Positions 2,498 through 60,875 of a stretch of 64,000 nt of DNA are shown one piece after another; within the stretch, counting starts at the first letter, position 1, and each line of letters starts with the position of its first letter. The position numbers and the translations under genes were made by a program. Where the stretch lies: positions 64,001 to 128,000 of the forward strand of contig JBBCGK010000001.1 of the NCBI GenBank assembly GCA_037200965.1, given 5' to 3'. Under the pieces are notes generated by a model, which saw nothing but the letters and a program-made list of their open reading frames with translations, did no database searches and was not told the origin of the DNA. Origin of the DNA: a bacterium (GTDB lineage Bacteria; Patescibacteriota; Minisyncoccia; Phycocordibacterales; Phycocordibacteraceae).

Positions 2498-2529
2498 GGC
2501 CGGGCGGGGAGTCGTGATAAAATCAGTCC

Positions 2530-3375
2530 ATGCATGAGGGGATCGCAATCCACCTGGCGCCTTTGGCGCTTTTTCATATCGGGTCGTTCGCAGTGACGAA
2601 CACGCTCTTCACGACGCTCCTGGTATCCCTCCTCCTCATAGTCTTCGCGTATTTCGCCGGGCGCTCCTTGAAGCTCAAGCCCGGCAAGTTCCAGGCGGTC
2701 CTCGAGCTCATCATCGTGTTCCCGTATACTTTCGTGCGGGATACCCTCGAGGACGAGAAGGCAGCGGAGAAGCTCTTCCCGATCGTGATGACCATCTTCC
2801 TCCTCGTTCTCACGGTCAACTGGTTCGGGCTTTTGCCGATAGGCGAGGGGATAGGGTTCGGAGGAGAGCACGGTTTCGTGCCGCTCTTCCATGCGAGCTC
2901 CACCGACCTCAACTTCACCCTCGCGCTCGCGCTCGTCGCCTTCTTCACGATCGAGATATTCGGCATCGCGGCCCTGGGCGCGTTTAAGTATGGAAAGAAA
3001 TTCATCACCTTTGCGTCGCCTATCGCTTTCGTAGTAGGCTTGATAGAACTCGTCTCCGAAGTGGCGCGGCTGATCTCGTTCTCCTTCCGCCTCTTCGGAA
3101 ACGTGTTCGCGGGCAAGGTACTCATACTCGTGCTCGCGTCGTTCGTGCCGCTTCTCCTGCCCGTACCGTTCCTGGCGTTCGAGCTCTTCGTGGGCTTCAT
3201 CCAGGCGGCGATCTTCGCCCTCCTCACGCTCTTCTTCACGAAGATCGCGATCTCGGGACACGCGGAGCACGAGCATGCGGACGGCCACGACGGCGCGGAG
3301 CACGGCCTTGCGCATGCGGTGGTCGACGAGCGCGACCTGCCGCACGGCATTACAAAAACAACCATCACCACCTAA
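2530..3375 (+). CDS. atpB: F0F1 ATP synthase subunit a
   Basis: Polytopic membrane protein with the conserved ...SFSFRLFGNVFAG... (essential Arg) motif; first gene of the atp cluster; TGaTAAAAT -10 lies 6 nt before the ATG; unusual His/Asp-rich C-terminal tail. Confidence 0.9.
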   Translation: MHEGIAIHLAPLALFHIGSFAVTNTLFTTLLVSLLLIVFAYFAGRSLKLKPGKFQAVLELIIVFPYTFVRDTLEDEKAAEKLFPIVMTIFLLVLTVNWFGLLPIGEGIGFGGEHGFVPLFHASSTDLNFTLALALVAFFTIEIFGIAALGAFKYGKKFITFASPIAFVVGLIELVSEVARLISFSFRLFGNVFAGKVLILVLASFVPLLLPVPFLAFELFVGFIQAAIFALLTLFFTKIAISGHAEHEHADGHDGAEHGLAHAVVDERDLPHGITKTTITT

Positions 3376-3381
3376 ATTCAT

Positions 3382-3609
3382 ATGGAACTTGAAGCAGCAA
3401 AGGCGCTCGGCATGGCCCTCGCGGTCGGTCTTGGCGTCATGGGTCCCGGTATCGGCATCGGCATCCTTGTCTCGAAGGCGCTCGAAGCCATCGGGCGAAA
3501 CCCCGAGGCCTCCGGCCCGATCGTCGTCAACATGTTCATCGGTATCGCATTCACCGAGGCGCTCGCGATCTTCGCGCTCGTCGTCGGCTTCATCATCAAG
3601 TTCACCTAG
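3382..3609 (+). CDS. atpE: F0F1 ATP synthase subunit c
   Basis: 75-aa two-helix proteolipid; Gly-rich helix 1 ([14 protein letters not shown]); conserved carboxylate E in helix 2 ([11 protein letters not shown]). Confidence 0.9.
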
Positions 3610-3621
3610 TTCCTGCTATCC

Positions 3622-4065
3622 ATGGAAGCCCTCATCACCACCTTCGGCGTCGACTGGCGAAGCCTCGCGCTTGAGGTGGTGAACTTCGGCATCCTGGTCG
3701 CGCTTTTGACCTGGCTTTTGTATAAGCCGGTCCTCAAGATGGTGAAGGAGCGGGAACAGGTCGTCGCCAAGGGCGTCGAGGACGCCGAGGAAGCGGCAAA
3801 GAAGCTCTCGGAGGCGGACGCGAAGGCCCTCGAACGCTCGAAAGCGGCCGAGAAGGAAGCAGAAGAGACCGTGCAGACGGCGCGCGGGGAGGCTTCCGGG
3901 GAGAAGGCGCGGCTCCTTGCAGAAGCGCAGGCGAGGGCTGCCGCGGTCGAGCGCGATGCGGAAGCGCGGGCAAAGGAATCGGCGGAACGCGCGAAGCGGG
4001 AAAGCGAGAAGGACATCGCACGCGTCGCGCTTCTTGCCGCCGAGAAGCTCATGAAGACCAAATGA
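3622..4065 (+). CDS. atpF: F0F1 ATP synthase subunit b
   Basis: N-terminal TM helix then long charged Ala/Glu/Lys-rich helix; position in the atp operon. Confidence 0.85.
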   Translation: MEALITTFGVDWRSLALEVVNFGILVALLTWLLYKPVLKMVKEREQVVAKGVEDAEEAAKKLSEADAKALERSKAAEKEAEETVQTARGEASGEKARLLAEAQARAAAVERDAEARAKESAERAKRESEKDIARVALLAAEKLMKTK

Positions 4066-4301
4066 CCTACGAAACCCTCGTCGAGCACTTGAAGCGCACC
4101 GGCCGGATGAAGCTCCTGCCGAGAATTTTGAGGGAACTCAAGATGAAGGAAGCGCGAGCGCGGAAGCTCGCGCCCCGGAAGGAGACGGCGGAAGAAAGTC
4201 CCGCGCTCATCAGCGGCTCTCGCTCGATAGAGAACGGCATCCTCACGGACACCACGGGAAAGCGGGCGCTCCTTGAGATTTATAAGAAAGTCACGGCCTA
4301 A
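4062..4301 (+). CDS. atpH: F0F1 ATP synthase subunit delta (OSCP), unusually short (79 aa)
   Basis: Position between atpF and atpA with ATGA overlap; C-terminal ...ALISGSRSIENGILTDTTGKRALLEIYKK resembles the OSCP C-terminus; the N-terminal helical domain seems absent. Confidence 0.55.
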   Translation: MTYETLVEHLKRTGRMKLLPRILRELKMKEARARKLAPRKETAEESPALISGSRSIENGILTDTTGKRALLEIYKKVTA

Positions 4302-4303
4302 GC

Positions 4304-59449: not shown

Positions 59450-59506
59450 ACAATATAGAAAAATAAAGTAGAATGATCTTGTGCTGACTTAACGCAGGAG
59501 AGTATC

Positions 59507-59989
59507 TTGACAATCAAACTGTTACCGGTGCGCCGCCTGATGGCACCATCCTTCCCCTCAAAGCCTGTCGAGATGGCGCTCACTCTCGATACCCCGGAAG
59601 GAGAACTATTCCTTACGGGCGAATCTCGACGGAACCTCCGTAAGAAGATCGCGAGGCAACTTGCAAGGCTTGCCTACAATTCGGTCGAATTTGGAAAGGA
59701 TCGGGTTGTGTACATTGTGACTCCCGTGAACACGGAGAACGAAAGTTGCCTCGTCCTCGATTTGCGTGCCACAGAAAGCGCCTTCGATATGTGGGTGCGC
59801 GAAGGCACTCAATGCGCGGAGCAGGTTTCGCTGTTCGCCCAGGTGCTCGCAGCGGGAAACAAACCCAATCCAAGATTCCCGATAGCTTGGTGGGCTCCAA
59901 AACAACTCGTGTTCTGGTCTTTTCAGCGGAAGGTCGCCGACGCATTCTGTAACGCCGCTTCGGATCTACCGCTGATTCCGTGCATGTAA
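59507..59989 (+). CDS. hypothetical protein
   Basis: 160-aa ORF; TTG start 9 nt after AGGAGAG; AT-rich promoter-like region upstream; terminator downstream. Confidence 0.4.
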   Translation: MTIKLLPVRRLMAPSFPSKPVEMALTLDTPEGELFLTGESRRNLRKKIARQLARLAYNSVEFGKDRVVYIVTPVNTENESCLVLDLRATESAFDMWVREGTQCAEQVSLFAQVLAAGNKPNPRFPIAWWAPKQLVFWSFQRKVADAFCNAASDLPLIPCM

Positions 59990-60007
59990 CCGCTTCGTCT
60001 CCAGAAC

Positions 60008-60045
60008 CCGCTTCGCGGCTTCGGCAGCGAAGCGGTTTCTTATTT
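60008..60045. terminator. hairpin terminator between convergent genes
   Basis: ccgcttcgc-ggcttcggca-gcgaagcgg followed by tttcttattt. Confidence 0.65.
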
Positions 60046-60666
60046 ATTCCTAAGATCGTGCGACTTCCACAGCGCAAGGCACGCATAGCTGCGGTGCGGG
60101 CTCCATGACTCTGCGATTTTTAGAAGCTTCTCGCGCGGAACGCCCTTCTTGAGTTTATAAATCCGCTCCATCGAGCGTACGAGGCCGAGATCGCCGACGG
60201 AGAAGACATCGGAGCGCCCGAGCGCGAAGATGAGGAACATCTCCGCCGTCCATGCGCCGATACCCCAAACCGAGCTTAAGGAGGCGATGGCCTCGGCTTC
60301 CGGGAGACGCTTGAGCGCGAGGAGGTCGAGAGACTTGGTTTCGACCGCCTCCGCAAGCGACTTGAGCGTCTTCGCCTTCGCTCCTGAAAGTCCCGCGGCG
60401 CGAAGGGACGGGAGGGAAGCGGCGAGGATCGCCGCGGGAGTAACGCTCCCGCCGCAGGCCGCTACGACGCGTTGCCATATCGCGCGGGCCGCGCCTGTCG
60501 CAAGCTGCTGGCCCACGACCGAGCGAGAGAGCCGCTCAAAGAGTCCTTGCCTAGTCCGTACCTGCCCGAGCTCCGGCGGAAGCTCCTTTCGGACGGCCCG
60601 GGCGGCCGCATGGAGCTTCGGGTCCGCCCGCCTGAAGTGCATAAGCGCCTTGTCCCGTCCGGTCAT
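60040..60666 (-). CDS. HhH-GPD superfamily DNA glycosylase (AlkA-like DNA-3-methyladenine glycosylase II)
   Basis: ...LSSVWGIGAWTAEMFLIFALGRSDVFSVGDLGL... helix-hairpin-helix/Gly-Pro-Asp signature with catalytic Asp. Confidence 0.8.
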   Translation of the reverse strand: MTGRDKALMHFRRADPKLHAAARAVRKELPPELGQVRTRQGLFERLSRSVVGQQLATGAARAIWQRVVAACGGSVTPAAILAASLPSLRAAGLSGAKAKTLKSLAEAVETKSLDLLALKRLPEAEAIASLSSVWGIGAWTAEMFLIFALGRSDVFSVGDLGLVRSMERIYKLKKGVPREKLLKIAESWSPHRSYACLALWKSHDLRNK

Positions 60667-60686
60667 TACCCCCTATACTACTACCA

Positions 60687-60875
60687 ATGCTGAAGCTCAT
60701 ATTCTGGATCGTCGTCGGCGTCCTGGCGCTCTCTTTCTTCGGTATTTCCCTTCGCGCCATCATCACCTCGCCGATCGGCCAGGACAACCTCGGCTTCCTA
60801 TGGATGCTCGTCGTCCAGGGCTGGGATGCGATCGTGCAGTTCTTCACCTCGCTCCTTCCGCACCAGTTCGTCTAA
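60687..60875 (+). CDS. small membrane protein
   Basis: 62 aa, two TM; TATACT -10 at 60674-60679, 7 nt before the ATG. Confidence 0.45.
   Translation: MLKLIFWIVVGVLALSFFGISLRAIITSPIGQDNLGFLWMLVVQGWDAIVQFFTSLLPHQFV

Follow-up and report, generated by a model that had tools for sequence, protein, structure and literature searches.

How do ribosomes find the start codons of a genome in which a promoter-like hexamer stands directly before many of its genes? The question is raised by a 64-kb stretch of the contig JBBCGK010000001.1 (positions 64,001 to 128,000; "the window" means this whole stretch of 64,000 nucleotides (nt), and all coordinates refer to it), in which the original prediction had listed 13 genes with a −10-like hexamer, often extended by TG, placed 6-9 nt upstream of the start codon, and had read this arrangement as a sign of widespread leaderless mRNAs. 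On re-reading, all 13 sites were confirmed (Table 1), each with a TAnnnT hexamer (TATACT at seven sites, TATAAT and TAAAAT at two each, TATCAT and TATATT at one each); the TGn extension is present at 7/13 sites, and the start codon is ATG, except for the GTG at 19385. The positions given in that prediction for the TG or the first base of the hexamer were correct within 1 nt (the scpB hexamer TAAAAT occupies 50508-50513), as was the spacing, which is 6 nt at six sites, 7 nt at five, 8 nt at scpB and 9 nt at 14769. The window has a G+C content of 58-62% and is densely coding, nearly all on the forward strand; its housekeeping genes include the atp operon, ychF, ung, alaS, secY through rpoA and rplQ, rplM and rpsI, as well as a grpE-like gene, dnaK, dnaJ, tyrS, tRNA-Tyr, trpS, an asnS-like gene, scpA, scpB and the murG region.

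Genes were called from codon statistics alone, with the motif ignored, the start being set at the codon that maximised the coding score of the remaining open reading frame (ORF). A hexamer was accepted with at least 5/6 matches to TATAAT, A2 and T6 being required, and 2000 dinucleotide shuffles of the upstream regions served as the null model. Under these rules, a hexamer at a spacer of 6-7 nt precedes 12 of the 67 starts, as compared with a shuffle mean of 0.42 (standard deviation 0.65, maximum 5), and the enrichment over shuffled sequence that the original prediction presupposed is thus present. Over the same 67 starts the other spacer pairs average 0.12 hexamers, and the hexamer profile from 0 to 49 nt upstream is close to zero except at spacers 6 (7 genes) and 7 (5 genes). 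The hexamer context is found at 16 of the 1725 ATGs of both strands, 12 of these 16 being gene starts, and at 2/276 in-frame internal ATGs. A start-agnostic count, in which the gene calls are unused and a hexamer is scored when followed after d nt by an ATG or GTG opening at least 100 codons, is maximal at d=6 (10) and d=7 (5), with a background of 0.84 per position (d=12-30).

The same phasing was detected outside the window. Its closest relatives by tyrosyl-tRNA synthetase (TyrRS) are uncultured metagenome-assembled genomes (MAGs) with 64-70% identity and synteny over ~20 kb; the relatives were sampled around two anchor genes only, and their taxon names (Patescibacteria, Candidatus Saccharibacteria or Parcubacteria) were assigned by the depositors. 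By these relatives, the window belongs to a bacterium of the candidate phyla radiation (CPR) that is environmental and comparatively rich in GC. In the pooled close relatives, the start-agnostic count reached 11 and 12 at d=6 and d=7 versus a background of 2.6, and over the window and relatives the spacers are distributed as 6 (19 sites), 7 (13), 8 (8), 9 (9) and 10 nt (2). In the identical pipeline, Firmicutes and Bacteroidota loci gave no start-phased hexamer peak, and Actinobacteria loci gave a peak at spacer 6-7 with the looser TANNNT. It might be suspected that the pattern is a chance or compositional artefact, or that starts were selected for a nearby hexamer, since they had originally been picked visually by a reader aware of the motif. 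However, the motif-blind caller picked 12 of the 13 starts (the exception being scpB), and together with the shuffles, the position controls and the absence of a peak in the two control phyla this rules such an explanation out, leaving it a negligible probability. The start-phased hexamer is real and well beyond chance. The count of at least 13 genes in the original prediction stands insofar as all 13 are present, and is too low, as further sites were found: those marked as additional in Table 1, plus two candidates on the minus strand. With relaxed boxes counted (TATAAA at 18247, TATAAC at 47801 and TATCTT at alaS), 16/67 genes have a box within 8 nt of the start and 5/67 at 9-12 nt; a further 22/67 have no box and are tightly coupled to an upstream stop (≤15 nt), the other 24/67 falling in none of these classes.

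The next question is what kind of element the hexamer represents. Sites collected by the hexamer alone in the window and relatives carry TG in 29 of 51 cases (T in 61%, G in 76%). The box precedes 14 of the 33 first genes of transcription units versus 3 of the 34 internal ones. A pyrimidine occupies position −1 in 89% of the motif genes and is followed by the A of the ATG, the two making up the usual pyrimidine-purine start dinucleotide. Finally, the box also occurs before the tRNA-Tyr gene, which serves as a non-coding control: TATAGT or TATACT lies 8-12 nt before this gene in 7/8 relatives, in most of them with a TTGAAA-like −35 element, and the tRNA thus has its own predicted promoter both in the window and in these 7/8 relatives. 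(The gene itself sits 28 nt after tyrS in the window, and ~30-860 nt downstream of tyrS in 8/8 close relatives.) By these four independent lines, i.e., the TG extension, the first-gene bias, the tRNA-Tyr box and the start dinucleotide, the hexamer is, judged from its sequence, a sigma-70 −10 element, mostly of the extended −10 class.

The same data bear on the proposal that the A/T-rich hexamer is no promoter at all, being a translational element within a leader, namely a non-SD (SD, Shine-Dalgarno) ribosome-binding or standby site of the type that defines group B of GeneMarkS-2. Such an element would suit a genome from which SD signals are missing and in which start regions are enriched in A/T. 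Yet the group B (Bacteroidota-type) motif precedes all genes, operon-internal ones included (PMC6028130), and the same would be expected here, whereas the box is biased to first genes as given above; nor would a translational element account for TGn at 57% of the sites, for a box before an untranslated RNA, or for the TTGACN- or TTGAAA-type −35 elements located at 17 nt in some sites. We consider this proposal very improbable. The −35 elements are otherwise weak, the best match at the 51 sites being mostly 2-3/6, and full −35/−10 promoters are not enriched in the window (8 vs 6.5 ± 2.6). Strong hairpins (−15 to −25 kcal/mol) are located a few nt before the box at 10616, 14769, 19385, ung, tyrS and trpS; they fill the place of a −35 element and form a very compact terminator-promoter junction. 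The best-conserved full promoter of the region is that of the gene at 18247, as TTGACT-18-TATAAA-9-ATG is present in 5/6 relatives and the box is further from the ATG in locus L081; Pfam places a Sigma70_r4 domain at the N-terminus of the encoded protein, along with a weak match to HARE-HTH.

Being placed against the start codon, these sigma-70 promoters, mostly TGnTATAnT with a weak or no −35 element and in many cases beginning directly downstream of the previous gene's terminator hairpin, would initiate transcription ~7 nt past the −10 hexamer, where the start codon has its first base, A (or G). A discriminator of 6 nt would set the first transcribed base at the A of ATG, one of 7 nt at this A or the base before it, and spacers of 8-12 nt would result in leaders of 1-5 nt. 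It is highly probable that this overlap of promoter and start codon yields leaderless or near-leaderless mRNAs (0-5 nt leader) translated from the 5'-terminal AUG, to which a ribosome carrying the initiator tRNA would bind directly. About 21/67 genes, or ~45% of the first genes of transcription units, would be of the leaderless type; the downstream cistrons, which have no SD, would use stop-start coupling, as suggested by same-strand gene gaps, most of which fall between −4 and +12 nt; the low structure and low GC of the start regions would help. The leaderless reading put forward in the original prediction is supported by the enrichment, the 6-7 nt phasing, the promoter hallmarks, and the conservation and N-termini described below; where transcription starts is what we infer from the usual distance of ~7 nt between a −10 element and the start, and the direct binding of ribosomes is likewise an inference.

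Several points weigh against this reading. The gene caller that set the 67 starts is home-made, and so is the rule by which a first gene was recognized (≥40 nt separating it from the preceding gene, or a divergently oriented neighbour). Spacers of 9-12 nt (14769, alaS, 23123, 18247 and several 19385 orthologs) would give short leaders and not strictly leaderless mRNAs. The boxes of 41762 and ung show no conservation in relatives; ung is operon-internal and boxless in L081 and L082, and its promoter in the window is accordingly lineage-specific. Some boxes lie close behind same-strand genes (HD, 20 nt; 41762, 7 nt; 47801, 8 nt; 58100, overlapping), and leadered read-through transcripts could coexist or dominate at these four. 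At 58100, where the box falls within the 3' end of the preceding gene, whose stop overlaps the ATG, either an internal promoter or stop-start coupling may operate.

In a more general form of the same objection, the hexamers would be real but minor or conditional promoters, most mRNA being leadered through read-through or upstream promoters and translated independently of SD, with leaderless RNAs making up a small fraction. Six motif genes do begin within 20 nt of a preceding same-strand gene, and the non-motif genes evidently initiate without SD in structure-poor start regions, so a leader would not block translation. Most motif genes, however, are located behind strong terminator-like hairpins or behind long or divergent gaps, and the conserved 6-7 nt phasing would have no rationale if a 5' end close to the start codon were unimportant. 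We regard this explanation as unlikely and retain leaderless or near-leaderless transcripts as the preferred one. Within the window, one arrangement deserves mention in this connection: the starts 60666 (minus strand) and 60687 (plus strand) are divergent with 20 bp between them, and their candidate −10 boxes, TAGTAT on one strand and TATACT on the other, overlap; the two genes would be leaderless and their transcription probably mutually exclusive.

Comparison with relatives revealed that box and spacing are conserved while the flanks diverge at tyrS, trpS, dnaJ, alaS, 10616, 14769, 19385 and 18247. At tyrS, where the surrounding sequence cannot be aligned, a TATAGT, TATACT or TATAAT is found 6-8 nt ahead of the aligned ATG in 11/12 relatives, the most distant having 49-52% protein identity, and TGn accompanies almost all of these boxes. 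For trpS, TG(c/g)TATCGT stands exactly 6 nt before the ATG in 7/7 relatives. The dnaJ orthologs, which align from residue 1, carry TATAGT 8-13 nt upstream, with TTGCAT 17 nt further up in 4/5 of them. Syntenic metagenome contigs support the boxes of 10616 (TGaTATAAT-6-ATG in L083, TATACT-13-ATG in L082), 14769 (TGgTATAAT-7-ATG in L082, a box in L088 too), alaS (TGgTATCTT-6-ATG in L082) and the HD gene (TACACT-7-ATG in L081). Among the 19385 orthologs, the box lies at 6 nt in L083 (TGcTATACT) and L085 (TATACT without TG, and with ATG in place of the window's GTG), and at 11-12 nt in L081, L082, L084, L088 and L089. The scpB orthologs of L003 and L005 have TATCCT or TATGCT 9 nt upstream.

The original prediction further held that the motif fixes several true start codons differing from those of the longest ORF, a claim borne out by Pfam profiles, ortholog alignments and upstream stops. 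The longest ORF extends further upstream at 5/13 sites (14769, ung, dnaJ, tyrS and trpS), and at the other 8/13 no start codon is available between an in-frame stop and the codon next to the motif. Such a stop lies 3-9 nt upstream in atpB, 19385 and scpB: that of atpB falls inside the hexamer, so that no alternative start exists upstream, and that of 19385 is 3 nt before the GTG, the alternative ATG 19391 being 12 nt from the box. The short forms of DnaJ and TrpRS are backed by Pfam, and position 1 of the respective profile falls on residues 3-6 in DnaJ, MurG, ScpB and AlaRS; ortholog alignments begin at residue 1 for dnaJ, tyrS and ung, and at residues 1-7 for trpS; the start of 14769 is backed by coding potential and by the box conserved in L082 and L088. 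ATG is the start codon in 95% of motif genes versus 77% of other genes. For scpB, the TTG 50552 chosen by the caller was dropped for ATG 50522 on the basis of the Pfam ScpB alignment. The motif-adjacent ATGs are the predicted true N-termini. Longest-ORF calling would lengthen tyrS, trpS, ung, dnaJ and 14769 by 24-125 codons, and in MAGs of this kind both longest-ORF and SD-trained start prediction would mis-set N-termini.

As to the SD signals themselves, the original prediction rightly described the leaderless-type sites as devoid of them, for their geometry leaves no room and none is present; its statement that a minority of genes have a classic AGGAGG instead did not survive, 0/51 AGGAGG copies of the window being located 3-13 nt before a called start. 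The SD core (GGAG, GAGG or AGGA, scored at −18..−4 with a control region at −40..−26) occurs before 9% of the window starts versus 15% in the control region. The corresponding values are 15% vs 9% and 8% vs 5% in two tiers of close relatives and, in the same pipeline, 50% vs 8% in Firmicutes, 31% vs 14% in Actinobacteria, 43% vs 6% in host-associated Saccharibacteria and 4% vs 3% in Bacteroidota. Thus, SD signals are near-absent in the window and not merely less common; even its ribosomal-protein and atp genes have no SD. The leadered gene 49930-50367 on the minus strand is a counter-example, having the sole correctly placed GGAGG before a called start in the window, and GGGAG stands before three window starts, at a usable spacing before two. 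Among the few genes with an SD-like GGGAG is that of a Ros/MucR-family zinc-finger regulator (46019-46495, E=5e-48), in which it stands 6 nt before the ATG; the family is typical of Alphaproteobacteria and unexpected in a CPR genome.

An alternative ribosome-binding motif replacing SD was looked for among the −20..−1 k-mers of 142 non-motif genes and rejected, since only TAA-containing words, which are due to upstream stop codons, and the rare GGGAG (8/142) emerged. Non-motif starts lie instead in a dip of structure and GC (mean minimum free energy −4.9 vs −9.6 kcal/mol, p=3e-10). Neither the window nor 17 related loci contained an rRNA gene; the one well-placed GGAGG and the few GGGAG hint that the 16S anti-SD is retained. 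Loss of the anti-SD has been reported only in a Parcubacteria subgroup (PMC9297842).

The tyrS gene allows the two modes to be compared on orthologs. In 8/11 loci of host-associated Saccharibacteria it is preceded by a TATAAT-type −10 element (mostly TGnTATAAT), ~25 nt, AAGGAG, 6-7 nt and the ATG; L045 and L050 have the same leader with AAGGAG, no evident box and a tRNA-like sequence upstream, and L048 is the only leaderless-type locus among the 11. This leader is nearly invariant, ending AAAGGAGTATTCC-ATG. Leaders with an AAGGAG-type SD also precede tyrS in Actinobacteria and Firmicutes. Apparently, the clade of the window has replaced an SD-leadered tyrS by the leaderless arrangement, as these upstream regions suggest. 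A more far-reaching proposal, which we make tentatively and consider somewhat doubtful, is that an environmental Saccharibacteria-like CPR clade, comprising the window and relatives down to ~50% TyrRS identity, abandoned SD-led initiation almost entirely in favour of leaderless first cistrons and of downstream ones reinitiated through tight stop-start coupling at starts with little structure, and that this state is derived, given that orthologous tyrS genes are leadered with AAGGAG in the three groups just named.

Table 1. Start-proximal −10-like boxes of the window, with control and counter-example features; "additional" marks sites beyond the 13 of the original prediction
Feature	Coordinates (strand)	Box, spacer, start codon	Remarks
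atpB	2515..2532 (+)	TGaTAAAAT, 6 nt, ATG 2530	first gene of atp operon; Pfam ATP-synt_A
76-aa (amino acid) ORF	10600..10618 (+)	TGcTATCAT, 7 nt, ATG 10616	first start in ORF; hairpin −22.8 kcal/mol directly upstream
189-aa ORF	14751..14771 (+)	TGgTATAAT, 9 nt, ATG 14769	predicted leader 2-3 nt
451-aa ORF	19373..19393 (+)	TATACT, 6 nt, GTG 19385	terminator hairpin −25.0 kcal/mol just upstream
ung (uracil-DNA glycosylase)	26234..26249 (+)	TATACT, 7 nt, ATG 26247	Pfam UDG; hairpin −22.0 kcal/mol upstream
HD-domain gene	26924..26938 (+)	TATACT, 6 nt, ATG 26936	first start; HD_4 profile position 1 = residue 10
dnaJ	40663..40677 (+)	TATACT, 6 nt, ATG 40675	J domain profile position 1 = residue 4
ABC transporter	42180..42197 (+)	TGcTATAAT, 6 nt, ATG 42195	Pfam ABC; first start, in-frame stop 27 nt upstream
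tyrS	44452..44469 (+)	TGgTATATT, 6 nt, ATG 44467	TyrRS identity by homology
trpS	46832..46850 (+)	TGgTATACT, 7 nt, ATG 46848	class-I W/Y synthetase; residue 5 = profile position 6
scpB	50508..50524 (+)	TAAAAT, 8 nt, ATG 50522	SMC_ScpB profile position 1 = residue 6; in-frame stop 6 nt upstream
murG	55616..55634 (+)	TGcTATACT, 7 nt, ATG 55632	first start; Glyco_transf_28 profile position 1 = residue 3
62-aa ORF	60674..60689 (+)	TATACT, 7 nt, ATG 60687	first start; coding score 21.3
357-aa Sigma70_r4 protein	18207..18249 (+), gene to 19320	TTGACG-17-TATAAA, 11 nt, ATG 18247	additional; predicted leader 2-4 nt
Gene at 23123	23105..23125 (+)	TGgTATCAT, 9 nt, ATG 23123	additional
alaS	29828..29848 (+)	TGaTATCTT, 9 nt, ATG 29846	additional; AlaRS profile position 1 = residue 5
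Site 31800			additional
125-aa ORF	41750..41764 (+)	TATAAT, 6 nt, ATG 41762	additional; first start; box within last dnaJ codons
Site 47801			additional
449-aa secreted-looking protein	58085..58102 (+)	TGgTATACT, 6 nt, ATG 58100	additional
Site 63229			additional
HhH-GPD glycosylase	60664..60682 (−)	TAGTAT, 8 nt, ATG 60666	hexamer 4/6 match, tentative
tRNA-Tyr	45746-45829 (+)	TATAGT 45730-45735, 10 nt before mature 5' end	non-coding control
Leadered gene 49930-50367	50365..50437 (−)	TATAAT 59 nt upstream, GGAGG 9 nt before ATG 50367	leadered counter-example
Terminator-like hairpins	10568-10600, 14709-14735, 19346-19370, 26205-26230, 46800-46830		few nt before next −10 box
Leadered tyrS of host-associated Saccharibacteria	loci L035, L037, L055, L057, L060, L073, L074, L075		the 8 leadered loci

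The window has some further features. A MazF/PemK-like toxin gene (6767-7156; Pfam PF02452, E=5e-9) lies between atpG and atpD of the atp operon, has no obvious antitoxin and is followed by a 381-nt gap with a consensus TATAAT at 7283; as atpD lies within ~20 nt of atpG in L082, the gene looks like an insertion. Two diverged IS30-like transposase genes (11518-12423 and 54660-55574, with a HTH_38/HTH_23 N-terminus) share a ~90-nt 5' flank beginning GAATTCyAGCyTGAAACGCAACAAC, the second copy being just upstream of the murG promoter. In two low-coding stretches of ~1.4 kb each (1076-2529 and 9157-10615) the ORFs had no Pfam matches, and an Rfam search gave nothing at the gathering threshold; the stretches hold several consensus-like −10 hexamers (2089, 9175 and 10252) and may represent degraded genes, small ORFs or non-coding RNAs.

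How does this arrangement compare with known systems? A Pribnow box 6-8 nt from gene starts defines group C of GeneMarkS-2 in M. tuberculosis, and the leaderless architecture was established by differential RNA sequencing in M. tuberculosis and D. deserti (PMC6028130). The window resembles these Actinobacteria and Deinococcus (M. tuberculosis, M. smegmatis, D. deserti) in having a −10 box 6-8 nt before first genes with no SD and, as predicted, no 5' untranslated region, as well as in a similar share of operons, which is 25-60% in group C (PMC6028130). It differs in that its −10 element, TATAnT with TGn, approaches the consensus much more closely than TANNNT, the loose form of Actinobacteria, in that group C keeps SD on internal and leadered genes whereas the lineage of the window has no SD enrichment, and in the host lineage, which here is a Patescibacteria/Saccharibacteria-like CPR bacterium. 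As far as can be read from nucleotide sequence, every feature of group C is found in the window except the SD sites on the remaining genes. In the literature on Saccharibacteria, Patescibacteria, CPR and TM7 we found no description of leaderless genes, the GeneMarkS-2 supplementary tables being outside this search; some CPR genome may already be classed as group C, e.g., in those tables or in an internal assignment of the Prokaryotic Genome Annotation Pipeline. A transcriptome dataset of Nanosynbacter lyticus TM7x with 188 transcription start sites is cited in PMC12641261. The mechanism is therefore a known one, in a lineage for which no report was found, and the near-absence of SD adds to it. 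Known until now chiefly from Actinobacteria and Deinococcus-Thermus, frequent leaderless initiation would be extended to a CPR lineage. In practical terms, TGnTATAnT-N6-ATG would represent a short, easily transferred signal for gene expression in Saccharibacteria and other members of the CPR. CPR bacteria are only beginning to be genetically manipulated.

The nearest comparison within the group by depositors' labels is that with the host-associated Saccharibacteria (rumen and other MAGs, L035-L075), which share the d=6 peak with the window (26 vs a background of 7.6) and differ in that SD is used and tyrS is leadered. The same gene thus shows an apparent within-group switch from an SD-leadered to a leaderless form, which is relevant both to the question of whether leaderless initiation is an ancestral trait or has been derived repeatedly and to start-codon selection by reduced ribosomes. 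Bacteroidota (group B) are similar to the window in lacking SD enrichment and in relying on unstructured start regions; in contrast, their genes are leadered, with an A-rich motif before all of them, and their loci have no start-phased −10 box.

In haloarchaea such as Haloferax volcanii (group D), the majority of first cistrons are leaderless and there is little or no SD use elsewhere. They are the closest functional match to the whole pattern of the window, closer than Mycobacterium. If the proposed abandonment of SD is true, the clade would be the bacterial counterpart of the haloarchaea, with a link to the reduced CPR ribosome, possibly via changes of the 16S 3' end or of initiation factors. 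The signals themselves are different, since haloarchaea employ an archaeal RNA polymerase and a TATA box ~26 nt upstream (PMC6028130), whereas the window has a bacterial −10 element at 6-7 nt.

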